A stretch of DNA of 63,046 nucleotides, the filler included, from Stramenopiles sp. TOSAG23-2 (lineage: Eukaryota), in the NCBI GenBank assembly GCA_900128395.1. It is 8 parts of 8 records of this genome, joined end to end, with 100 filler letters (N's around TTAATTAATTAA, not from the genome) between each part and the next. Parts side by side here need not be neighbours in the genome. Positions count along the whole stretch, not along the records: positions 53,274 to 54,820 come from LT652701.1; 7 more parts are not named here. The stretch is one strand, 5' to 3'. Within the stretch, counting starts at the first letter, position 1. Every line of letters begins with the position of its first letter. The notes beneath the pieces are model-generated. The model saw nothing but the letters and a program-made list of their open reading frames with translations. It was not told the origin of the DNA and searched no databases. The translations under genes and the position numbers were made by a program. Below are positions 26,661 to 58,113 of this stretch, in pieces.

Positions 26661-29600
26661 CATCGAGCTCCTGTATTATCGTACCAATGGCGTTGGTCCT
26701 TATCTGATTACACTGGAGGTGACAAAGTTGCATGTAATGTATTTTTTATCTGGGAATCCATACGCCCATTACTTCGTGGTGCGGCAACATATTGTGTTAG
26801 TGATGAGACTATTTATAATCCAGCTGAATTGACCTCATTTGTTGAACGCCATGGGGTAACTGAATTCTTATTTACTCCGACATTGTTTCAAAATGCAATT
26901 TCACAAATGTCAAAAAAGCAAATTGCACAGAAATTAAAAACATTACGAACAGTTTATTTTAATGGTGAAGTTTTATCAAAGGAAGTTGCAAGGCGTGCTA
27001 TTGAATACCTTCCAAATGTACGTTTTATTAATGTATATAGTATCTCTGAATGCCATGAAGTTGGGGCCATTGATATCTCAAAATTAGATTTAAATGATCC
27101 CCCAACTGGATTTTGTCCAGTTGGTCACCCAAATCCATTGACTCCACCATATATTTTAGATGAAGCTTTGAATCTAGTAAAAGATGGTGAAGCTGGAGAA
27201 CTCTATGTTTCCGGTCCATTGCTTGCTCGTACATATTTAAATTTGCCAGAAAAAACATTGGAACGATTTCCAACAAGTCCATATAAGCAGGATTATGTTG
27301 AAGGTGGTGATAATCGTATGTATAGAACTGGAGATCGTGCTAGAATGTTACCAAATGGAATGATTGAAATTCTTGGCCGTTGTGCATTTATGGTTAAAAT
27401 TAGAGGTTACTCTGTTGTACCAGGTGCAATTGAGGTTGCATTATTAGATGCAGTAAATTTGGAAGCTTGCGCAGTTATTGCTGATGGGGCAGAAGGAACG
27501 GAGAAACGATTGGTTGCCTTTTTAGTTAGGAAGACGACTGGAAAAGTTACGGATGTTGTTCCATTGACTGAGGAAGGATCTCCTAAGTTGGCAGCTTTCA
27601 ATATCAATAAGACGACAGGAGCATGTAATGATATTCGTACGATAATGAAAGCTCGCCTTGCTCATTATATGGTTCCATCTGTTTACATTGAAGTCGATAA
27701 ACTTCCTTTGAACATCACGTCAGGAAAATTGAATGTAAAAGCATTAAATGCAATGGCTGAAAAACAAAGAAAAGCCATTTCAAATCCAAATGTAACGGAT
27801 AGACAGCATAGGGTAGATGATAACAAACGATTGGATATGTTGAAAATGTCATACCAATACATGAAAATTCCTGACGATGCTAGTCTTGAAACAGTTGAAT
27901 ATGCCTTGTTAATGGCATGGGAAGGGATATTAGCTTTGCCATTTGGAGCAATTACTAGAGAGGATGAATTTCTTGCTCTAGGAGGGCATTCCCTATCCGC
28001 AGCACGCCTTGTGAATACTATTGAAAGTATGTTTGGAGTAAAATTGCCAGTGTCACAAATTTTACAAGGTATAAAAGTAAAGCATCAAGCACGCGATATT
28101 GTAAGAGCATTAGATATTAAATGTGGAAGAAGAAAGGTTGCACCTGTTAAAAAAGGGGCTGCTCAATTGTTACAAAAAGTTATGGATTCAGCAACTATAC
28201 CAACATTGAGTGCAACCATGGTGAACAATTACATGAGTGAATCTAAAACTACCAAAGTCGTCCCAGATTTAAATAAATGTAAGCAAGTTTTTTTAACAGG
28301 TGCAACTGGATTTTTTGGTGCGCATTTATTATTTGAATTATTAATGGCTGGAGTGGAAAAAGTCGTTTGTTTAGTAAGAGACCGTGGAAGTGATCGTGCT
28401 GGCAAAAAGGTGCTGGTGGAAAATTTGAGATCATATGGACTTTTACGTCAATTAGGAAATACAGGTGTGGATAGAATTGTTGCAATTACTGGTGATTTGA
28501 CAAAAGTAGGGTTTGGCGTGGATGGTTTGTCGTATGAGGGAGTTTTAATGAAATCGGATGGAATTGTTCATTGTGCTGCATTTGTATCATTGGTAGAAAC
28601 ATTTGAAAATCTAGTATCAAGCAATGTTCAAGGAACAAAAGAAATGGTTAAACTTGCTGCTGCGATTAAAAGTGAAACTGGTGTATCTCCACGCGGGGTT
28701 TACATTTCTACGAATGGCATTTTTCCATTAAAACGTTTAAATATGAAAGATTTTCAACGCGTTAGTGTTGAAAATTGTAATTTTAACAATTTACCATCGG
28801 CAATGATTTATGGCTATAATGGTTCGAAAGAGACCGATGCTATTTCATCGATGTGCAATGGATATGGTTTATCAAAATGGGCTGCAGAAAAAATTGTTAC
28901 TGATTCAAGTGAAGCATTTGGGCTTGCATTTTCAACTTTTCGTATGGGTAATCTTTCACCAAATAGTAAAACTGGCCATAGCAATCCACTTGACTTTCAA
29001 TGTATGATTATACGAGGTTGTGATAAAGTTGGTGCTGTTCCTGTTGTACCAGAATGGCGAATTGAGGGAACTCCTGCGGATATAGCAGCACGTAACGTTG
29101 TTAGCTTATCTTCAACACATCAAACGGGAAATAAGATCTCCCATATCGTCCAACCTAATCATACACCATGGTCACAAGTAGTTGCTTGGATGGATGAAGT
29201 ACGTTTGGAGAGAAAATTGCCGAAATTGAAGCAAATAGCTTGGGATGAATGGCGAAATGTTGTCAAAGATATTGCTAAAACATCCGTAAGCACTACAAAA
29301 TTATTAGGCTTAATCGATTTGCTTCCTAATGGTGGTGTTGAGTATCTAAGTTGCCAACCATATTTAGAATGTAGCAAAACATGTATGGATTCAGACGATA
29401 TTGATAAATATAATATTTCAACAGCATCGTTAAAATTGTTTTTAAATCGATTGAAAATGCAAAAAATGTTTTCAATCAAGACGAAGAAAGTTGGAAATAG
29501 CGGTGGGAGTACTGAAGTCAAAACAGCTTCTATTGCTCAAACGATCAGGTCATTGGAAGGCAAAGTTGCCATTGTTACTGGGGCATCATCAGGTATTGGA

Positions 29601-30299
29601 CGTGGTATCGTCGTAGAACTAGCACGTGCCGGTTGCAATGTAGCTCTTGCAGCAAGGAGGTTGGAACAGCTAGAAATATCTAGAAAATTAATGTCAGAAG
29701 CTTGCAGTAACGGCACTGTTGAAACAGTATGTATTCCAACAGATGTAACAGACAGAGAAGCGATGATAAATTGCGTTGCGATTACAGAAGAGACACTTGG
29801 GCCAGTCGATATTATTGTAAATTGTGCTGGTGTGATGTATTTTGAAATGATGAAAAATGTTCATTGGGATGATTGGGAACGAACTGTTAATGTAAATTGT
29901 AAAGGACCAATGTATGGAATAGGCGCAGTCCTTCCTCAAATGATAGCGCGGGGTAAAGGTCACATTATCAATATTACATCTGATGCCGGTGTAACTGCAT
30001 TTGCTGGATTAGGTATATATAGTGGATCAAAATTTTTCGTAGAAGGCATGTCAAAAGCATTACGTTTAGAGACGGCATCTACAGGTATACGTGTTACTTG
30101 CATTCAACCAGGTAATGTAAAGACACCGTTATTAGCTACTTCTACTGATCAAGAAGGAATTAAAATGTATGGTGAGCCTAGCGGCGCTAAAGTATTGGAG
30201 CCAGCTGATATTGGGCGTGCCGTTGTATATGCAGCTACACAACCAGAATGGTGTGCTATAAATGACATTTTAGTCGAGCCACGTGAGGAGCCAACGTAA
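26661..30299 (+). CDS. NRPS-like A-T-R-SDR enzyme, glycine betaine reductase ATRR-like (5' truncated by contig end)
   Basis: Frame is open from the contig edge (HRAPVLSY..DKVACNVFFIWE..RPLLRG). A-domain motifs GELYVSGP, YRTGDRAR, VKIRGY, SGKL; T-domain LGGHSL; thioester reductase FLTGATGFFG, GYGLSKW; C-terminal SDR TGASSGIG, YSGSK. Confidence 0.9.
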   Translation, partial: HRAPVLSYQWRWSLSDYTGGDKVACNVFFIWESIRPLLRGAATYCVSDETIYNPAELTSFVERHGVTEFLFTPTLFQNAISQMSKKQIAQKLKTLRTVYFNGEVLSKEVARRAIEYLPNVRFINVYSISECHEVGAIDISKLDLNDPPTGFCPVGHPNPLTPPYILDEALNLVKDGEAGELYVSGPLLARTYLNLPEKTLERFPTSPYKQDYVEGGDNRMYRTGDRARMLPNGMIEILGRCAFMVKIRGYSVVPGAIEVALLDAVNLEACAVIADGAEGTEKRLVAFLVRKTTGKVTDVVPLTEEGSPKLAAFNINKTTGACNDIRTIMKARLAHYMVPSVYIEVDKLPLNITSGKLNVKALNAMAEKQRKAISNPNVTDRQHRVDDNKRLDMLKMSYQYMKIPDDASLETVEYALLMAWEGILALPFGAITREDEFLALGGHSLSAARLVNTIESMFGVKLPVSQILQGIKVKHQARDIVRALDIKCGRRKVAPVKKGAAQLLQKVMDSATIPTLSATMVNNYMSESKTTKVVPDLNKCKQVFLTGATGFFGAHLLFELLMAGVEKVVCLVRDRGSDRAGKKVLVENLRSYGLLRQLGNTGVDRIVAITGDLTKVGFGVDGLSYEGVLMKSDGIVHCAAFVSLVETFENLVSSNVQGTKEMVKLAAAIKSETGVSPRGVYISTNGIFPLKRLNMKDFQRVSVENCNFNNLPSAMIYGYNGSKETDAISSMCNGYGLSKWAAEKIVTDSSEAFGLAFSTFRMGNLSPNSKTGHSNPLDFQCMIIRGCDKVGAVPVVPEWRIEGTPADIAARNVVSLSSTHQTGNKISHIVQPNHTPWSQVVAWMDEVRLERKLPKLKQIAWDEWRNVVKDIAKTSVSTTKLLGLIDLLPNGGVEYLSCQPYLECSKTCMDSDDIDKYNISTASLKLFLNRLKMQKMFSIKTKKVGNSGGSTEVKTASIAQTIRSLEGKVAIVTGASSGIGRGIVVELARAGCNVALAARRLEQLEISRKLMSEACSNGTVETVCIPTDVTDREAMINCVAITEETLGPVDIIVNCAGVMYFEMMKNVHWDDWERTVNVNCKGPMYGIGAVLPQMIARGKGHIINITSDAGVTAFAGLGIYSGSKFFVEGMSKALRLETASTGIRVTCIQPGNVKTPLLATSTDQEGIKMYGEPSGAKVLEPADIGRAVVYAATQPEWCAINDILVEPREEPT

Positions 30300-30652: not shown

Positions 30653-31332
30653 CTATCGCATAGAATGGGGCAATGGTGCTATCAATATTAAGACTATACA
30701 AATTAATTTAAATACAATATATGACCATAGAATAAAATCGTAGCTGGTGGATGAATCACGTATCAATCCGCAATATAAAGGTCCAAATCCGACGAAAATA
30801 TGTGTCAATGTTAATTGAATTGATAGCTTTTTTGATATTTCTTTCTTAGAAAAAATAGTGGAATATGCTACACCTGTAAGTAAATCATTGATTCCCATGC
30901 CAGAGCCAAATAACATAGAGTAGGCGCATATTGAGCCGAATGTAGTTCCATACTTTAAAAAGAAAATTGCTCCTATGCCTAAAATTAATGGCAATATCAT
31001 AACATATTTTAAAGCAGTTGATGGAATACGATCAACAAAAATTCCCACAACTGCCACAACAAGCATCGTAACAAATGAACCTATTACTTGTATATCTGCA
31101 ATTTCATCTAATTGCAAATTGGCTTTTGATGTATTTAAAATATCAACTAAATAAAATTGGATGCCACACCATGCAAATTCAACGCTCGATTGAGCAAATA
31201 TCAAACTCCAAAATAACAATGTACGTAATGTTTCTTTATATGATAACATTTTGTATCCATCACGCGTTAACTCATCCACCACATCATCAGTGTTGTTTAT
31301 ATTTGCTAATGGTGGAGAGGATGAAGCAGTAT

Positions 31333-31367
<35 letters not shown>

Positions 31368-33208
31368 GGGTGTATATCTTCTAAGCCTAAATCTGGATGC
31401 AAATGATATTTCACTGGGTCATCTCTTAATAATAATAGAACTACAAATAGTAATGTAAAAATCATCATTCCTAATGCAATATATGCACCACGCCATCCAT
31501 ATGATATTATTAAAACTGCTACTAATTTTTGTACCACAATCATGAAAAAAGAAAACGATACAACTATTAAACTTGCTTTACCACGATAAAATTTAAACCA
31601 TTTTGCAATAGATGTTGTTCCAGACAGTACAAGCATTCCTGGACCAAGCAACCTCAAAACAAAAAATCCAATACCAAGAAATAACCATGAATTGACTAAT
31701 GAAACAGACATGACCGCAAATGCAAATAATGGTGATACAAAAAGTACGACTGTAAACTGGCCATAAAGATGGAGTAATTTTCCAACAAATGGTAATATGA
31801 ATGCTGTTAAAAAAAGTGAAACAGCCCACATCACTGCCAAAGAACTTCTCGATAAATTTAATTCTTTTCTAATATCTGGTAAAAAAAATGCCCAACCAAA
31901 CGTATGCCCCGGAAACGATGCTAAGATTAAAATACAACAAGCAATCAATTGTTGTAAGCCTGCAATTTTAGAATAATATTTTTGATGCTTTTTTTGTTCA
32001 ACATCTTGCCCAATTATTATTGTTGATGATGGTATACAGAATAATGGAGGGAGACAAAAATTCTTCCTTCGACTTGGTGTTTGTAATTCTTCACCTTTCA
32101 CTTCTTCATCTTCTAATTGATACAATGTTGTATAACCCATCGAATCGTATCCAACGTACCCATCAGATTGATTCATTTGCGATGGATGTTGTGATTGTCC
32201 ATGCTTATAAAGTTCATCCACATTGCTACTCATAATATTCCATGGTATTAAACTTTTATCTAATTTCGTACAACATATAACTTTTAAATTACCACAATAT
32301 CCTTTATTATATTTATTATGGATTCGTAAACCACTATGTTTATCAATATATGTACCACGTAAATTTTCATTGGTTGTTTCACCATGACATATTAAATAGC
32401 AATTATGATATACACATAATGTTGTAATCGGTATGACAAAGATGATTGTAAGTAAAAATGCTACAGTTGTTAATATATGTTTGACGAAAAAAAAAGTCAA
32501 TATATACAAAATAATATTCTCTGTTGCATTATTATTATTATTATATTTGCCATTTGTTACGGCATCATAATATTCCAAATATAAATCGAATAGACAAATG
32601 ATTAAAGATGCTATACATAATATAGTTATGGACGTTATAAATATTAAAAAATATTTATAATTTCGTTTTCCAATATCCACACCAAGCCATACACAATGAT
32701 GATCAAATGTTTCCACGCATACATCACACATTTTACAATGTCTTGCTCGTTCATGACGAAAATGTTGGCAACGTTGGCACCACACTTGGTTTTTATTACT
32801 ATTGTCTACATCAGAGGATGATGATGATGGTAATAACAAAGAATTGGACGTATTTGGAGAGTTTCGGTGTTGTTGTTGATGATTATTATAATTTTGAAAA
32901 AATGTTGGCCGAGGTATAATACCTGGTTCAATAAATATTGTCAAAAATAATGAAATGATAGTGATGCATGATATGATTGGAAAAACAATATTTAAATAAA
33001 TCAATGTTACCATATCATGCATAATAGCTTGGCTTTTATTTACATTTATATTGTAATATTTTGGTATTAAAAAAATGGATTCATAGATACATACAAATAA
33101 TAAGGATAAAATTGTAAATGGTAATAATTTTGGTGCATCATTGCCTAATATAATTTTACCATTGCATAGAAATCTATTTGCACCTGGCCAATTTTCATAC
33201 AAACGCAT
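30653..33208 (-). CDS. DHHC palmitoyltransferase fused to an MFS transporter
   Basis: Single 851-aa ORF. ERF2/ZDHHC9-like N-terminus ([15 protein letters not shown]), Cys-rich DHHC domain ([16 protein letters not shown]), TTxE (TTNE). C-terminal half has about 12 TM with MFS motifs ([32 protein letters not shown]). Confidence 0.85.
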
Positions 33209-49434: not shown

Positions 49435-51963
49435 TTACTCCTCTTTTATTGATGAGGGTGGAGGTGGCACAGGCTGGAGAATTAACAAAACAATTTCTCT
49501 AGGAGTTAAACTTAAATGAATCTTTACTTGATTCAGAGGGTAGATCCCAAGCAATCGTTTCTTTCCTTGCCCATTATAAGCTGGAACCCATGTTACTTGG
49601 CATCGATTCTTAGATGGCTGAGGTTTAATTCCATACATCTCCAAATCTAATACAATATCAATTTCAGCAGGAACATCCCTCATAACTGTTGTGATCGTAA
49701 CAAGAACGGAATCACCATCCATACTCCTCCATGCGCTAGACATGACTGCTGGGAATATTAATCCCGTCACATCATTTTTGCTTCCTCCTTCATGGGAACC
49801 ATGCCCTCGAGGGTGGTTAGGGAGCCGTGTCACTGTGACGTGATCATTTGTACCGTTTATTTTCAATTTCAAGTCACGTAATGCAGATCCATGATTAAAA
49901 TAATCAGCTGCAACACTTTTCGCGGAGGAGAGTCGCTGTAAATACAAAATTTCTGCATTGTATTCCGTGTCCATTAATAAGTCAAAAATATGGTTTTGAG
50001 GGTGGTTGGATCGCCCACCTAAAGAAAACCATCCCAATTGTGCCCCAAACATAAGTTGATTAGCAACCTTTGCTGCAAATACATTTGGATCTGGTAAGAA
50101 ATCACTACGATAAAACATGGCGCCTACAAAAAATACGTAACCTCCGTAAACTGACTGAAAAGCAGGGACAATCATCTTCCCACTACCAGCTTTCCTAGGA
50201 ACGTACGGTAGATCGCCACCAGCAAATCCTACCAAGGTGAGAAACATATTAATCCCCGCTAAAAATGGCTCCGCATTGCTCTCTGTCAAAATTATTTTAT
50301 TTGGCCCAGCTTTTGCTCGTACTGCATCCAGCATCTGTTTGTAACCATCAACCCAATGATGCCCTCCCCCAACCGGGTGTCCATGGGATTTATCCCAACA
50401 TGGTCTTGGACCAGCAGCAGCAATTTGATCGATATACACCCCATCTGTCTTGTAATTATTGACGATCCTGTCCACAACATCTGCAATAGTATTTTGCCAA
50501 TATTTTGTGTGCGGGCACATGACTGCAAACACTGCTTTTGATCCATATGACTCATTGTATAACAGCAAAGATTTGCTACTGCTGTTTAAGATTGCAGGTG
50601 TTGATTTTGCCGCTGCATGTTTTGCCTCTCCACCTTTTGCTACCCAACTCTTTGTATCTTGGTCAAAAATCCTACCATTAATATAAGGAGCCACACGAAC
50701 TCCTAAAGCTTGAATGTCTTTTAATTTCTCTTGAAATTTTGAACGAACTGGAAAATATTCTGGATAATGTGTATCAAACCCGCATGTAATTTCACTGCTG
50801 CAATTAGAATAATTTGAACCTTTTACATACCCAAGTGTATCCCATTCGTACCAATGCAATCCCAATTGGTTTTTTCCCAATCCGAATCGCTCTGAAATTG
50901 CTTTTACCCGATTATAGACTACTTCTGGATCTCCCCCCGTTATGTTAAAGATATCGTTATCTTGCCAATGTGTGTTGATCCAAGTCGTCATGTCAAATGC
51001 CCAGCTTGGAATTTGATCCATTCGTTCTGCCATGCTGCCTTGCTTTGTCCAGTCAGCAGATTTTAATGCCCACCTTCGATAAATTTGAGCAGCGTCCCAC
51101 CAATCGTTTTCAAATACAGATATGACAATAGGCCAGTTCGGCTCGTAATTAATACCACCTTCCCCAGCGTTTGGAACGATAGCTTGTATTTCAAAATTTG
51201 CATGTGTACCCGTGCTAGATACTTGGCAGCCAAATCCTTTTGAAGAAGCTTTGGGATCATGTGCCGCAACATACACACCAAATACATCATCATCACCACT
51301 CCCGATGTAGCTTTTCGAGACCACTGGACCATACGTTGCAAGATATTGCATTGTTGCTTGTGGGTACATACCACTAAAGGATTGAGGTGGCCGGTGAATA
51401 ACTCCAAATCCAACATTTTCAAACAAGGTAGACTTTCCATCAGCATTAAGAATTATACATCCAAAATTTATTTTCCAGTCCCAGACTCCAATGTTAGATA
51501 ATGGTTCGACGAATATAGTTGGGACCAACTCTAATTGTCCTTGCTCCACTATGTTAAACAAAAGCTGCACGTTTATATATTCTTTGCTGCTACTATCATC
51601 TACAACTGGGACTTCAAAGTGAAGTTTCAGGTTTGTGTCATTTTTATAAGTGACTGTTTGAATTATATCTTTATCACTAGATGTCAAATTATATAGATAT
51701 TTAGAGAAGTTTGTTACAACAGAAATCTGCCAAAGTGGTGGTTGTGTTTTACAATCTGCTTCAATGAGAGATGGAGAATAAATGCCAGGACTAATAACCT
51801 TTTTTAGTGCTACGATGGAACCAAATGTGTTTGTGTTTGTATCGATATTAATAGATACAGAAATATCTTCATCACTTCCTACCCATATTGATGATTGGGA
51901 AGAACATTTCACGACCCAACAAAAAGTGGCAAGCAATGCCAACACGCCGTGAACATATAACAT
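49435..51963 (-). CDS. Secreted glycoside-hydrolase-like protein (DUF6259-like)
   Basis: Signal peptide; TIM-barrel GH-like motifs LHWYEW, FDTHYPEYFP, APYINGRIFD, AVMCP, DGVYIDQIAAA, C..HGHPVGGG, TESNAE. Confidence 0.72.
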   Translation of the reverse strand: MLYVHGVLALLATFCWVVKCSSQSSIWVGSDEDISVSINIDTNTNTFGSIVALKKVISPGIYSPSLIEADCKTQPPLWQISVVTNFSKYLYNLTSSDKDIIQTVTYKNDTNLKLHFEVPVVDDSSSKEYINVQLLFNIVEQGQLELVPTIFVEPLSNIGVWDWKINFGCIILNADGKSTLFENVGFGVIHRPPQSFSGMYPQATMQYLATYGPVVSKSYIGSGDDDVFGVYVAAHDPKASSKGFGCQVSSTGTHANFEIQAIVPNAGEGGINYEPNWPIVISVFENDWWDAAQIYRRWALKSADWTKQGSMAERMDQIPSWAFDMTTWINTHWQDNDIFNITGGDPEVVYNRVKAISERFGLGKNQLGLHWYEWDTLGYVKGSNYSNCSSEITCGFDTHYPEYFPVRSKFQEKLKDIQALGVRVAPYINGRIFDQDTKSWVAKGGEAKHAAAKSTPAILNSSSKSLLLYNESYGSKAVFAVMCPHTKYWQNTIADVVDRIVNNYKTDGVYIDQIAAAGPRPCWDKSHGHPVGGGHHWVDGYKQMLDAVRAKAGPNKIILTESNAEPFLAGINMFLTLVGFAGGDLPYVPRKAGSGKMIVPAFQSVYGGYVFFVGAMFYRSDFLPDPNVFAAKVANQLMFGAQLGWFSLGGRSNHPQNHIFDLLMDTEYNAEILYLQRLSSAKSVAADYFNHGSALRDLKLKINGTNDHVTVTRLPNHPRGHGSHEGGSKNDVTGLIFPAVMSSAWRSMDGDSVLVTITTVMRDVPAEIDIVLDLEMYGIKPQPSKNRCQVTWVPAYNGQGKKRLLGIYPLNQVKIHLSLTPREIVLLILQPVPPPPSSIKEE

Positions 51964-52809: not shown

Positions 52810-53273
52810 AGCGGGGTGATATGGTGAAAAGGCGATGAATACCATGTGTGTGTGTGTGTGTGTGTGTGTTGGCACATATCATACTTGAGATACACATTTT
52901 ATGATGTATCATACACTCGTATGATATAGTATGTGTGGCGCAGCAATGAAAGCTCGTCTATTTTATATATAAAAAAGAAAAAGAGTGTATATTACGTAAA
53001 ATAATACGTGTACGTGAATATGATGTATGAAGAAGGATATTCGCAAAAAAAAAATATAATTTATATATGACAGCCGAAAAGATCAAAGGTGCCGATTTTA
53101 CACATAGGATAAAATTTGTACTCTTAGTATATTAATCATATTTAAAAATTACTTTTTTGTGCACAAAAATGCANNNNNNNNNNNNNNNNNNNNNNNNNNN
53201 NNNNNNNNNNNNNNNNNTTAATTAATTAANNNNNNNNNNNNNNNNNNNNNNNNNNNNNNNNNNNNNNNNNNNN

Positions 53274-54820
53274 GTGTACAAACAATAATAATGTTATTGA
53301 CGTCGGGAAGTATTTATTATTACATGGTGGTAAAGAAATCGATTTTAATCAAGGCAAAGCAGATTGGCCGAATGCAAAATTACTAATTAAAAAATATAAA
53401 AAAGAATTTCCAGACGGTATGCCATTAGTATGTGCATGTGAAAAAGGACGTTTTGAGGATGTGAAATTATTGATTACAGGTTATAATGATGTCTGTATAT
53501 TTCACTCAAAATATTTATAACATTTTTGTGTGTAGCCGTGTAGCCCTCCCTTCTCTCTTCTAGATCTTCTCGTTTTTTTCTCTCTGTCTTTTTCTATGAT
53601 CTTTCTACTGGATGTGAAAGTATTGATGATTACAGGCTATAATGATGTGAATGGTAGTAATGGTAATAATAATAATAATATGGCATTGAAAGAATACGTG
53701 AATCAAGTCGGTAAAGATAGTGATGGTGATGAATTTACACCTTTAATGATAGCTGCATACGGCGAACATTTCCAAATAGTTAAATATTTAATTGAGATCA
53801 TTTATCCACATGCATCTAAAGTAGAAAAGAAATATTATGTAGAATTTCCAAAAGGTACGCCAATAGTATGTGCATGTGAAAAAGGACGTTTTGAGGATGT
53901 GAAATTATTGATTACAGGCATTTTTGTGTGTAGCCGTGTAGCCCTCCCTTCTCTCTTCTAGATCTTCTCGTTTTTTTCTCTCTGTCTTTTTCTATGATCT
54001 TTCTACTGGATGTGAAAGTATTGATTACAGGGCGTAATAATGATGTGAATGGTAGTAATGGTAATAATAATAATATGACATTGAAAGAATACGTGAATCA
54101 AGAAGGTAAAACTAGTGGTGGTAGTTCTGGATGGACACCTTTAATGATAGCTGCAAGATATGAACATCAAGCAATTGTTGACTACTTGGTAGATAATGCA
54201 TACACTGATGAAACTGAGATATTTAGGAAATATAAAAAAGAATTTCCAGACGGTACGCCATTAGTAGTTGCATGTGAAAAAGGACGTTTTGAGGATGTGA
54301 AAGTATTGATTACAGGGCGTAATAATGATGTGAATGGTAGTAATGGTAATAATAATAATAATATGACATTGAAAGAATACGTGAATCAAGTCGGTAAAAC
54401 TAGTGATGGTGATGATCGTACACCTTTAATGGCAGCTGCAAGATACGAACATTTCCAAGTAGTTAAATATTTAATTGAACAAGGTGAAGCTGATCCTAAT
54501 ATTGCAAATAGTGATGGATTGAATGCATTACATTATGCAGCACGTAATAACAGAACGAGTACTGAGTTGATTGAGTTGTTATTAACTCATATGTCTCTTG
54601 ATAGTATTAATAAGAAGGACGACGAGGAAGAGACTCCCCTGGACGTGGCATGTGAATGGTAGTAATGGTAATAATAATAATAATATGACATTGAAAGAAT
54701 ACGTGAATCAAAGAGGTAAAAGTAGTGGTGGTAGTGGATGGACACCTTTAATGGCAGCTGCATACTACGAACATTTCCAAATAGTTAAATATTTGATTGA
54801 ACAAGGTGAAGCTGATCCTA
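53274..54820 (+). CDS. Ankyrin-repeat protein module array, fragmented (frameshifted, partial)
   Basis: Four copies of MxLKEYVNQxGKxSxGxxxTPLMxAAxxEH and three of EFPxGxPxVxACEKGRFEDVK, in different frames and interrupted by a duplicated non-coding insert. Confidence 0.75.
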
Positions 54821-56568: not shown

Positions 56569-58113
56569 GAGGGTGGCAAACCGTTATTAACTAATGAAAA
56601 TGATAATAAAATAACTGTAAAAGAAGAGGAAAAAGCTTTTCTACTGTTTCGTCGATTAGGCACAGTAGCTGCTGATGATGTCGGTATCACGCATAAAAAG
56701 GCATCAAAATTATTACGTAAATTTAAAGAAATCGAAAAGAAAAGGTTACGATCAAAAGCTCGTCAAAGTAGAGGTGTTGATGAAGATATAAGTTGGTATG
56801 GTAATAATGATAAAAGAATATTTGAGGATAATTATACTAACAATGATATTCACAGCAATTTTGAAAATGGTATTGGTGCCGATGATAGGAAGAAAAGGAT
56901 CGCTACAAATGCACGAAATGGTAGAAAGAAACGGAATAGTTTGTTGAGCAAACGCCGCAAATCAAATTTAATGAAGAATGGTAATAATAATAGTAATAGT
57001 AGTAGTAGTAGTGGAAATAATGTTAGTTTTAATGATACATTTGATGTGATGGATATTGAACCGAAACGAAATAATGAAAAGAATAAACATGAAAACAATG
57101 GTTCTAAAAAGTTAGACAGCGTAGCAACAACAATCACTACACAACCAGTAGCAAATGTTCCACCAAAAGAAAGCAAAGATACAAAGATGAAAACATCTAT
57201 TGTTGTACCAAAACCAATTGGTGTAAAAATTATGACTCCATTAGATACAATGATGGACAAAGCAATATTTAGAAGTTTCCGTGAAGGACCTCGTTTTTGT
57301 AATTTAATTATGGATGCATTAAATCAAGGTTGTAATGCAAATTTTGTTCGATATCAAGCAGACAAGACTACCGCATTAATGGCAGCTTGCTTGCATGGTC
57401 GTGGTGATATCGTGATTCGATTGATCGAATCCGGTAGTGATATGAAATTACTTGATAATGAAGATCGCAGTGCAGTTGATTTTGCAAAGATTGGCAAACA
57501 TTTTGATATTGTTACCGAATTAATGCAATTAGGAGGTCTTACCGGAGCAGAAATTGTTCGACAACGAAAGGAAGCCGAAGAGAAAAGTCAATATGTATAT
57601 GATTATTATTACCTAAAAGGTGTTGCAGCTGATGATGTGAATAACAATAGTGGTAATAAAGACATGAATAACAGCAATGGTATGGATGTAGGATCTTCGA
57701 ATACGACAATAAACAGCAACCAGGACAATAATATCACATCATCAACATTTTCTAATTCTGCAATTTTAGATATAACAACCAAATATCAAAGTAAATTTTT
57801 AAGAGCTGCAGATAGTAATAGCTATGTGAGTTATGAAAATGCGGAACATTTGTTTTCTGATGCAACGAATCCAAAAGATCAATACTTTGGTTTGGAGGAA
57901 TTTCAATATGAAAATGATGCACATGATTTAAGCGAATTAGAAGATTCAGACGATAGCAATGCTGAGAATTATTTTGAGAATGATTATGCTGACAGCGATC
58001 CTGGTATTTTGTTCACATCGGAAGAGGAAGATGATAGAGAAAATCAATATCATGATGATTATGATGACGAACGATGTATTATTATGGATGATGGTGATGA
58101 TTATTATTATTGA
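56569..58113 (+). CDS. IWR1/SLC7A6OS-like RNA polymerase II nuclear import factor with ankyrin repeats (5' partial)
   Basis: Frame is open from the contig edge (LLFRRLGTV). Ankyrin TTALMAACLHGR..SAVDFAKIGKH; IWR1-type motifs YVYDYYYL and EDSDDSNAENYFENDY. Confidence 0.7.
   Translation, partial: EGGKPLLTNENDNKITVKEEEKAFLLFRRLGTVAADDVGITHKKASKLLRKFKEIEKKRLRSKARQSRGVDEDISWYGNNDKRIFEDNYTNNDIHSNFENGIGADDRKKRIATNARNGRKKRNSLLSKRRKSNLMKNGNNNSNSSSSSGNNVSFNDTFDVMDIEPKRNNEKNKHENNGSKKLDSVATTITTQPVANVPPKESKDTKMKTSIVVPKPIGVKIMTPLDTMMDKAIFRSFREGPRFCNLIMDALNQGCNANFVRYQADKTTALMAACLHGRGDIVIRLIESGSDMKLLDNEDRSAVDFAKIGKHFDIVTELMQLGGLTGAEIVRQRKEAEEKSQYVYDYYYLKGVAADDVNNNSGNKDMNNSNGMDVGSSNTTINSNQDNNITSSTFSNSAILDITTKYQSKFLRAADSNSYVSYENAEHLFSDATNPKDQYFGLEEFQYENDAHDLSELEDSDDSNAENYFENDYADSDPGILFTSEEEDDRENQYHDDYDDERCIIMDDGDDYYY

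Follow-up and report, generated by a model that had tools for sequence, protein, structure and literature searches.

The question raised by positions 53,274–54,820 of the stretch of DNA analysed here, hereafter the window (63,046 nucleotides from Stramenopiles sp. TOSAG23-2, assembly GCA_900128395.1), is whether this contig (LT652701.1), in which four ankyrin modules share a near-identical framework and differ by whole codons at a few sites, is a genuine array of diversifying binding units. Our answer has two parts: the modules and their variable codons are real, and the array is an artefact. The contig is probably a chimeric walk through paralogues and an unrelated non-coding piece. These paralogues come from an AT-rich marine picoeukaryote and form part of a very large nuclear family, in which the codons of the binding face have been diversified.

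Four ankyrin modules in one short contig

The features to which we refer below are the following.

53,274–54,820: the whole feature under study, a single contig of 1547 bp in a draft assembly of an AT-rich eukaryote
53,274–53,491, plus strand: piece 1, the end of an ankyrin repeat and an 'ANK-B' repeat (..KKEFPDGMPLVCACEKGRFEDVKLLITGYNDV), in contig frame 2 (from translation)
53,492–53,615, no strand assigned: a foreign, pyrimidine-rich non-coding piece of 124 nt, with microhomology of the GATGT type at both joins to ankyrin sequence
53,616–53,918, plus strand: piece 2, module M1 (VNGSNGNNNNNMALKEYVNQVGKDSDGDEF-TPLMIAAYGEH..) and the ANK-B repeat that follows it
53,919–54,013, no strand assigned: the 3' 95 nt of the foreign piece once more, 100% identical to positions 30–124 of the first copy
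54,014–54,651, plus strand: piece 3, with M2, an ANK-B repeat, M3, a third ankyrin repeat and the start of a fourth (TPLDVA)
54,652–54,820, plus strand: piece 4, module M4, out of frame, the frame of piece 3 ending in EW and two stops
53,686–53,706, 54,081–54,101, 54,369–54,389 and 54,691–54,711, plus strand: the copies of the framework 21-mer TTGAAAGAATACGTGAATCAA (exact match search)

The first-pass annotation had described four copies of one module with a shared framework, and this was confirmed: the 21-mer is present in four exact copies (0 mismatches), against 0.00 expected in 100 shuffles, and the module peptides quoted there are correct on translation. A 171-nt repeat is found in four copies, from 53,645, 54,043, 54,328 and 54,650 (84, 61, 100 and 91% identity to the reference copy), and Tandem Repeats Finder reports a 398-nt period on the contig. 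The repeats are ankyrin repeats by Pfam: a 222-aa open reading frame (ORF) at 53,994–54,659 matches Ank_2 with an E-value of 4.7e-33, and scores 114.1 bits for Ank_2 (cut-off 27.3) and 97 for Ank (cut-off 21.1).

Among the columns covered by at least three modules, 18 of 52 vary. All eight of these columns that belong to the hypervariable set of the wider family (see below) vary among the modules, and none of the 34 invariant columns belongs to that set, for which we estimate a hypergeometric probability of about 6e-5 from those counts. The variation had been called almost entirely non-synonymous, which overstates it: Nei–Gojobori counting gave 1.5–8.5 synonymous against 13.3–28.5 non-synonymous differences over all pairs, with a ratio of non-synonymous to synonymous differences per site (pN/pS) of 0.73–2.88. 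The pairs among M1, M3 and M4 have 1.5–3.2 synonymous and 13.3–19.8 non-synonymous differences (pN/pS 1.17–2.88), and those involving M2 have 6.5–8.5 and 21.5–28.5 (pN/pS 0.73–0.79). Taken alone, the four short modules are suggestive, the sample being far too small to carry a claim of selection.

The contig is a patchwork of gene copies

Contigs of four public sequencing runs, including a seawater metagenome and a poly-A RNA library, were aligned to positions 53,274–54,820. No aligned record of these four runs spans the whole contig, and the best share of its sampled words in any of 24 public runs was 0.32, none reaching half. The individual pieces fare differently. Positions 53,275–53,446 of piece 1 are covered by a 404-nt contig of an RNA library with 6 differences. 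Piece 2 is colinear with L026:1609–1911, a related metagenomic locus, at 88.7% identity (L026 being colinear with 53,611–53,919 overall by BLASTN), and its linker (EIIYPHASKVEKKYY.EFP) recurs in a 505-aa ORF of that locus. Piece 3 is colinear over about 54,008–54,651 with seven loci (L026, L072, L012, L011, L019, L018 and L045) at 76–82% identity by BLASTN, and is the only stretch resembling a natural two-module gene fragment. Direct counterparts of the linkers in pieces 2 and 3 occur in L026 and L072.

The colinearity ends at the join between pieces 3 and 4. Past 54,651, contigs of two runs carry 17 other letters, which read as the C-terminal cap normal for the family and not as M4. When the contig was compared with the 77 related loci by BLASTN, 25 of the 30 best alignments stopped at 54,644–54,659 and none of the 30 passed 54,659. 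The foreign piece is found in two runs, internal to contigs of 793 and 1427 nt with 0 differences, and with flanks unlike those in this contig; its depth is zero in the seawater metagenome and the poly-A RNA library, both of which hold the family in hundreds of contigs. Together with the common bases downstream, its second copy makes up a 107-nt exact repeat, and the coding DNA flanking the two copies is only 73–81% alike, unlike the identical insert. In a contig of one run 53,919 is joined directly to 54,040 with only CATG between them, the uninterrupted form of the gene. Before the first insert the gene sequence ends in ..ITGYNDV, and after it the gene is picked up again about 30 nt back, in other letters, which places the two sides in different paralogues. 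The joins sit at 3–5 nt of common letters such as GATGT, which would point to chimeric molecules or to a wrong walk through a repeat graph.

An intron at 53,492–53,638, for which GT..AG ends can be drawn, was considered and rejected, as neither the RNA nor the metagenome contigs contain the piece, which comes from a different locus.

Support for the variant codons, on which the first-pass annotation had made its proposal depend, is uneven: M3 is present in contigs of two runs with 0 differences and M1 in contigs with 1–2 differences, whereas for M2 and M4 there is non-zero depth only. Positions 53,950–54,001, for instance, have no cover in any of the four runs, and 54,158–54,209 in three of the four, which we regard as neutral.

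We infer the chimerism from assembled contigs of public runs rather than from raw reads, and this leaves some room for another reading, in which the contig reproduces a real locus faithfully: a multi-module pseudogene, rearranged and in decay, with two insertions of a short repeated element. Multi-module genes do exist in relatives (L072, L019, L011, L012, L026 and P0003), a short mobile element would likewise have other flanks elsewhere, and rare variants are lost in assembled contigs, so that their silence is weak evidence. We nevertheless judge this reading unlikely, because the two sides of the first insert belong to different paralogues, with about 30 nt of gene overlap and no target-site duplication; longer contigs of two runs pass unbranched through the foreign piece, which has no depth in the metagenome and RNA runs that both hold the family; and two runs go from 54,651 into a normal cap.

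The contig is thus not colinear with any real gene, being a patchwork of gene copies and a non-coding piece of another locus. With the foreign 124-nt piece and the frame-breaking join at 54,651/54,652, it is not to be trusted as a genuine array. Since it is chimeric, the mosaic within it is uninterpretable, as it compares different genes, and the earlier argument that the patchwork of variants among the four modules defies a single duplication history falls. The accompanying caveat, that paralogues might have been joined into a chimeric contig, was borne out by the public contigs, the join at 54,651 and the colinearity with related loci.

A large family of small ankyrin proteins

The paralogues from which the contig was pieced together belong to a large family. 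A protein search returned 465 relatives (E-value ≤ 1e-3) among 889 candidates, many of them from marine metagenomes of small size fractions, and of 251 stretches matched in metagenome contigs 149 proved to be relatives, from which 77 loci were kept, 29 of them sharing one record prefix. Each of the four runs has between 144 and 823 contigs with 95% or more likeness to the 1.5-kb stretch, the poly-A RNA library having 222. Two points weigh on these figures: family contigs in an RNA library do not prove transcription, and the sequences come from several assemblies and metagenomes, with orthologues, alleles and paralogues mixed. Complete ORFs fall into two subfamilies, A with 10 and B with 34, ORFs with N or without a stop being left out. 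L066_+12 and L071_+1342 were skipped by a pattern in one further analysis. For subfamily A, 8 of the 10 ORFs were used, the two-module genes L011 and L012 being left out.

A typical member is intronless, has 280–315 codons, and comprises an N-terminal domain of about 120 residues, a cassette of four ankyrin repeats and a C-terminal cap. The cassette starts with the TPIVCACEKGRFEDVKLLITG repeat, an Asn-rich loop and MTLKEYVNQ, continues with a hairpin and TPLMxAAxxEHFQIVKYLIEQGEADPNIA, followed by xSxGxNALHxAAxxN..ELIELLLTHMSLDSINKK, and ends in xxxGxTPLDxAYxxNxSPIxQxIIxLIRSKGGK; the MTLKEYVNQ stretch, in repeat 1 with the Asn-rich loop, is invariant. Ankyrin profiles are matched by all 17 aligned members. 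Genes with several modules are real, with three in L072 and L019, two in L011, L012 and L026, and four in P0003. Many members of subfamily B, and some others, also have a C-terminal tail, KANxxDENGRxVGxGNGDLN[HD], which is rich in Gly, Asn and Asp and has variable positions of its own.

The hypervariable cassette is also found fused to a ubiquitin domain (L072:196–2583), a RING-H2 finger (P0193, where the finger is C-terminal and accompanied by a long canonical ankyrin array), a kinase (P0237) and a MYND finger (P0213), and further fusions involve coiled coils and an XK-related domain. With such varied fusions, the cassette is therefore a portable recognition unit.

At least two family ORFs are present in each of 16 loci, often as tandem pairs, one locus has both subfamilies side by side, and the neighbouring genes include tubulin, LSm, a PI3K/FATC kinase (TOR-like), an AAA ATPase, Arf, SLX1 and phosphoglucomutase. 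The family loci have a GC content of 0.32, the same as the window, and a search of 2.9 million viral contigs gave no relatives, none of the 4 pattern-matched stretches being confirmed. From the housekeeping neighbours, the GC content and this lack of viral relatives it follows that the family is nuclear and dispersed, with tandem clusters.

In three loci (L017:2209–3132, L022 and L029) a divergent, family-like ankyrin gene is followed immediately downstream by a D12-class N6-adenine DNA methyltransferase (E-value 1.4e-45), and an Mrr-type restriction-endonuclease domain (L023) and a C5 cytosine methylase (L056) are found beside family genes.

The D12 methyltransferase adjoining family-like genes would fit an origin in a giant virus, or else in an intracellular symbiont, assembled together with its host, as would the resemblance of these AT-rich, intronless, tandem ankyrin genes to giant-virus families. 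We give this origin next to no weight, in view of the search of viral contigs and of neighbours such as tubulin, LSm, the TOR-like kinase, Arf and SLX1. The GC content and Asn-rich style of the genes also match those of the long contigs of the window (GC about 0.32), which have long, largely unbroken ORFs with Pan3, SET, Tubby, RME-8, HSP70 and DHHC domains.

In a protein atlas the nearest clusters are generic ankyrin proteins, with one fungal cluster annotated as 'F-box domain-containing' and one as poxvirus OPG189, which we treat as leads only. No description of this ankyrin family was found in the literature searched, which left most subscription journals outside. The word 'ankyrin' does not occur in several genome papers on marine stramenopile group 4 (MAST-4), and the host is not established as MAST-4.

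Contact-face codons are probably held different between paralogues

The entropy profiles of subfamilies A and B coincide. The variable columns are the residue after EFP, five hairpin positions before TPLM, and positions 10, 13 and 14 of the first helix of repeat 2, together with the equivalent hairpin and helix positions of repeats 3 and 4. The first-pass annotation had placed the variation on the ankyrin binding face, and its recurrence at these hairpin and first-helix positions in independent loci bears this out. The variable positions largely coincide with those randomised in designed ankyrin repeat proteins (DARPins). They are also consistent with a study of fungal receptors, in which the ankyrin hairpin fingers and the inner-helix groove are the contacts to the target (PMC4986451).

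In order to avoid circularity, the variable set was defined in one subfamily and measured in the other, and columns with less than 70% occupancy were left out of the pN/pS and bootstrap analyses. The 22 columns defined in A and tested in B have a pN of 0.488 against a pS of 0.187, with pN above pS in 555 of 561 pairs, and the 22 columns defined in B and tested in A have 0.535 against 0.180, with pN above pS in 28 of 28 pairs. This corresponds to a pN/pS of 2.6–3.0 at the cross-validated sites, compared with 0.70–0.82 for the remaining ankyrin columns and 0.41–0.43 for the N-terminal domain. Even the highest synonymous divergence found in the gene lies below the pN at the variable sites (bootstrap difference to the pS of the N-terminal domain 0.12–0.29), and the signal is kept in the six variable columns distant from alignment gaps, with ratios of 3.2 and 4.8. 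In the closest pair of genes, about 290 framework codons hold 6 synonymous and 10 non-synonymous differences (framework pS 0.032), whereas the 24 variable codons hold 1.2 synonymous against 20.8 non-synonymous ones. The residues used at the variable sites are biased as well, Tyr making up 10.5% against 3.5% and Trp 7.1% against 0.2%, with Arg and Asp also enriched. These pN/pS values come from Nei–Gojobori counting only, which is crude for codons with several changes and weighs against taking the ratios at face value.

The excess of pN over pS indicates that about 22–24 contact-face codons are held different between paralogues by diversifying selection, so that in this family, as in fungal receptors of the NOD-like type, positively selected sites of the concave face are set in a conserved framework of repeats. 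The more ordinary view is that this is simply an expanded ankyrin family, whose variable surface residues drift neutrally and whose framework is conserved by recent duplication. Ankyrin genes are often numerous in marine protists, in every ankyrin repeat it is the non-consensus positions that are exposed, and pN/pS is close to 1 among the four modules of the window (0.73–2.88). Drift would, however, give a pN close to pS, and neither the cross-validated ratios and pair counts, nor the bootstrap interval above the highest synonymous divergence, nor the number of replacements in the closest pair at so low a framework pS, nor the enrichment of Trp and Tyr is what it predicts; we therefore hold neutral drift to be most improbable.

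Probable exchange between subfamily B paralogues

In subfamily B the N-terminal domain and the ankyrin framework have uncoupled histories: the correlation between their pairwise distances is 0.03, against 0.76 and 0.71 for random halves of the N-terminal domain and of the framework, respectively. Contiguous halves also correlate less well than random halves. The synonymous divergence of the framework is 0.108, 2.6 times lower than the 0.286 of the N-terminal domain (bootstrap difference 0.13–0.24), and the association among variable sites fades beyond three codons (column 339 left out). The uncoupled histories, the low synonymous divergence of the framework and the rapid decay of association therefore point to frequent exchange of cassettes between paralogues.

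Some results pull the other way. The pairwise homoplasy index (PHI) test was significant with all codons (0 of 500 permutations), a result confounded by linkage within codons, and was not significant without the variable codons (31 of 500) or with third positions (478 of 500). The eight genes of subfamily A show no uncoupling (r 0.88). On balance, with PHI equivocal, the data indicate exchange of the cassette, or of parts of it, between subfamily B paralogues. The earlier proposal of a multicopy, recombining and diversifying family is in this way supported by the 77 related loci, the pN/pS of 2.6–3.0 and the uncoupling in subfamily B.

The same observations could be read as programmed diversification, either by templated micro-conversion, in which other paralogues would donate a codon or two of the binding site at a time, much as in the antibody genes of chickens and the variable lymphocyte receptors (VLRs) of lampreys, or by targeted mutagenesis. 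In the closest pair there are about two nucleotide changes per changed codon, scattered by site and not in blocks, the variable sites are nearly independent beyond three codons, and a framework with reduced synonymous divergence is expected of a conversion substrate. We consider it very unlikely, as no enzyme or template element was found among the 14 flanking ORFs scanned, no reverse transcriptase of a diversity-generating retroelement being present among them; by eye, the changes among variable codons of the four modules fall on all three positions, unlike the outcome of adenine-directed mutagenesis; no somatic variation is in evidence; and strong selection with ordinary gene conversion suffices.

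Fold of the cassette, and an N-terminal domain with a possible F-box-like motif

In the predicted model of one member (P0015), residues 111–281 have predicted local distance difference test (pLDDT) scores of 89–98 outside the Asn loop, and the modelled cassette shows the stacked helix-turn-helix and beta-hairpin units of ankyrin repeats. Foldseek with this cassette model gave 406 matches at an E-value ≤ 0.001, the top ones being designed ankyrin proteins, and the best matches among solved structures are DARPins, with a root mean square deviation of 2.4–3.0 over 151–153 columns and a TM-score of 0.66–0.69 on the target.

The N-terminal domain is narrowly distributed, with 61 proteins at an E-value ≤ 0.001 among 1.84 billion representatives. 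When the isolated domain was compared with Pfam in 28 members (alignment A3, which included 28 of 42 stretches), F-box-like was the most frequent family, matched in 9 of 28 (best E-value 0.0012), followed by F-box in 8 of 28. Its model has a mean pLDDT of 67.1 and consists of three short helices followed by a long one. Foldseek returned no match at an E-value ≤ 0.001, and 6 of the 39 weak rows were Skp1-bound F-box proteins (E-values 4.2–9.5). VIA-align gave a best Z of 5.4 to unrelated helical proteins, with an FBXW8 complex in 30th place (Z 4.2), and the profile of the domain against PDB sequences had a single, unrelated match (E-value 0.33). A RING-H2 finger in P0193 (zf-RING_2, E-value 5e-13) and the ubiquitin domain in L072 (E-value 7e-22) provide a second line to the ubiquitin system.

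Several of these results fall short of establishing an F-box. All the F-box scores are under the curated cut-off (16.1 against 24.3 bits), full-length proteins have an F-box match in only 1 of 17 (E-value 0.055), and none was found in 10 divergent family-like proteins at an E-value ≤ 0.1, nor in 30 of the 61 distant relatives of the N-terminal domain at an E-value ≤ 0.01. The RING and ubiquitin fusions are each a single protein, so that the link to ubiquitin is thin, and neither the window nor the loci contain a Skp1 of this organism. Assignment of the N-terminal domain as an F-box is thus unproven, and the combination of the RING-H2 fusion, the ubiquitin fusion and the sub-threshold F-box-like matches suggests a link to ubiquitin ligases.

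Surroundings in the window

The window (1–63,046) consists of separate contigs chained through N-runs around TTAATTAATTAA. From 53,274 onwards these are contigs of 1547–1544 bp ordered by size, coming after two long pieces. As the window is a size-sorted concatenation, adjacency in it is not adjacency in the genome. An Rfam scan of the window gave no matches at the gathering thresholds. The other features observed were as follows.

26,829–30,299, plus strand: one long ORF with AMP-binding, PP-binding, NAD_binding_4 (reductase) and short-chain dehydrogenase (SDR) domains, the architecture of a carboxylic acid reductase resembling non-ribosomal peptide synthetases, plus an additional SDR
30,653–33,208, minus strand: a DHHC palmitoyltransferase and a major-facilitator transporter in a single ORF, an unusual fusion unless it is an artefact of read-through at a gene boundary
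49,435–51,963, minus strand: an ORF of 842 aa with DUF6259 (E-value 5e-71), a weak GH66 match and a hydrophobic N-terminus
52,848–52,870: an intergenic (GT)n microsatellite at the end of a 26.5-kb contig
56,941–58,113, plus strand, in a neighbouring 1.5-kb contig: an Asn- and Asp-rich protein with one ankyrin pair (Ank_2, E-value 8e-7), outside the family studied here

Proposed function and relation to known systems

In the explanation that we favour, diversifying selection would keep the codons of the hairpin tips and first helices of repeats 2–4 different among paralogues, and the framework DNA would remain nearly identical, most likely through exchange between them. Some members carry two to four tandem two-repeat modules, and others present the cassette fused to RING, ubiquitin, kinase or MYND domains, the N-terminal domain being a putative lineage-specific, helical domain with an F-box-like motif. 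The proteins may then function as germline-encoded variable binding adaptors, probably as substrate receptors that pass the bound proteins on to the ubiquitin system, and their putative targets would be fast-evolving and could be virus, parasite or prey proteins. The role as variable recognition adaptors is what we infer from the sequences.

A bolder version would see here a germline repertoire of hundreds of natural DARPin-like binders, whose 22–24 contact codons are reshuffled by very short templated conversions between tandem paralogues, and which, as interchangeable ubiquitin-ligase substrate receptors (through the F-box-like domain and the RING and ubiquitin fusions), would provide intracellular immunity against viruses, parasites and ingested prey. 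We find this version doubtful.

The closest described system is that of the fungal NOD-like receptors (NLRs), which have highly conserved and positively selected ANK, TPR and WD repeats (PMC4986451). As in the present family, the framework of these repeats is nearly identical apart from a few positively selected, hypervariable positions, and the repeats are exchanged within and between genes, which is read as diversifying non-self recognition (PMC4986451). In contrast, the diversity of the present family is spread mainly over hundreds of small paralogues (280–315 aa) rather than over the alleles and repeats of one long array; its N-terminal domain is another one, and its host is a marine picoeukaryote and no fungus. 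NACHT and NB-ARC domains were absent from every family member scanned, among them the window ORFs, 17 aligned members, 6 long ORFs and 8 long relatives, NACHT being seen solely in distant fungal matches with 26–32% identity. Relative to the fungal NLRs, the family stands apart in that it has no nucleotide-oligomerization (NOD) domain and its diversity lies over many small genes.

The closest functional analogy is with the expanded F-box families of nematodes and plants (for example PMC8120010 and PMC8665587). These are also large, lineage-specific sets of small adaptors, in which a conserved N-terminal module is combined with a fast-evolving C-terminal binding domain, they also form tandem clusters, and they are proposed to target pathogen proteins for ubiquitination. 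The present family differs from them in having an ankyrin cassette instead of FTH, FBA or kelch, in F-box scores that are sub-threshold, and in variable sites that are far more sharply confined.

The poxvirus PRANC proteins and Legionella AnkB (PMC2790608) are also small proteins with an ankyrin binding domain and a motif that recruits a ubiquitin ligase, here putative. In the poxvirus ankyrin proteins the F-box-like motif is C-terminal, unlike the N-terminal one of this family, and both the poxvirus and the Legionella proteins come from pathogens and act on host proteins. We know of no comparable hypervariable repertoire of paralogues among them.

With DARPin libraries, whose design positions were reportedly laid out by Binz et al. 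in 2003, the family shares the confinement of variation to the beta-turn before TPL and the residues after AA. Unlike DARPins, it is natural and germline-encoded. Its repeat 1 contains a fixed MTLKEYVNQ helix and a long insertion rich in Asn, its repeat 2 has a hairpin longer by two residues, and variation extends to position 10 of the first helix and to the C-terminal tail. The principle on which DARPin libraries are designed is thus found in nature beyond the fungal NLRs as well.

For work on such families there is a caution, in that short contigs can be assembly chimeras, and patterns within them need checking at the level of reads. Recognition of viruses and parasites by the free-living, single-celled algae and predators of the ocean is poorly understood, and this family is a concrete, clonable candidate repertoire, in which very strong diversifying selection would act on the binding face, itself known, of a scaffold that is well understood. 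Since the sites are known, the fold is predictable and relatives are abundant in marine metagenomes and metatranscriptomes, tracking in populations and binding screens are possible. If an intracellular immune repertoire is indeed what these genes encode, it would be a third independent invention of recognition by repeat proteins, beside the NLRs of plants and fungi and the VLRs of lampreys.

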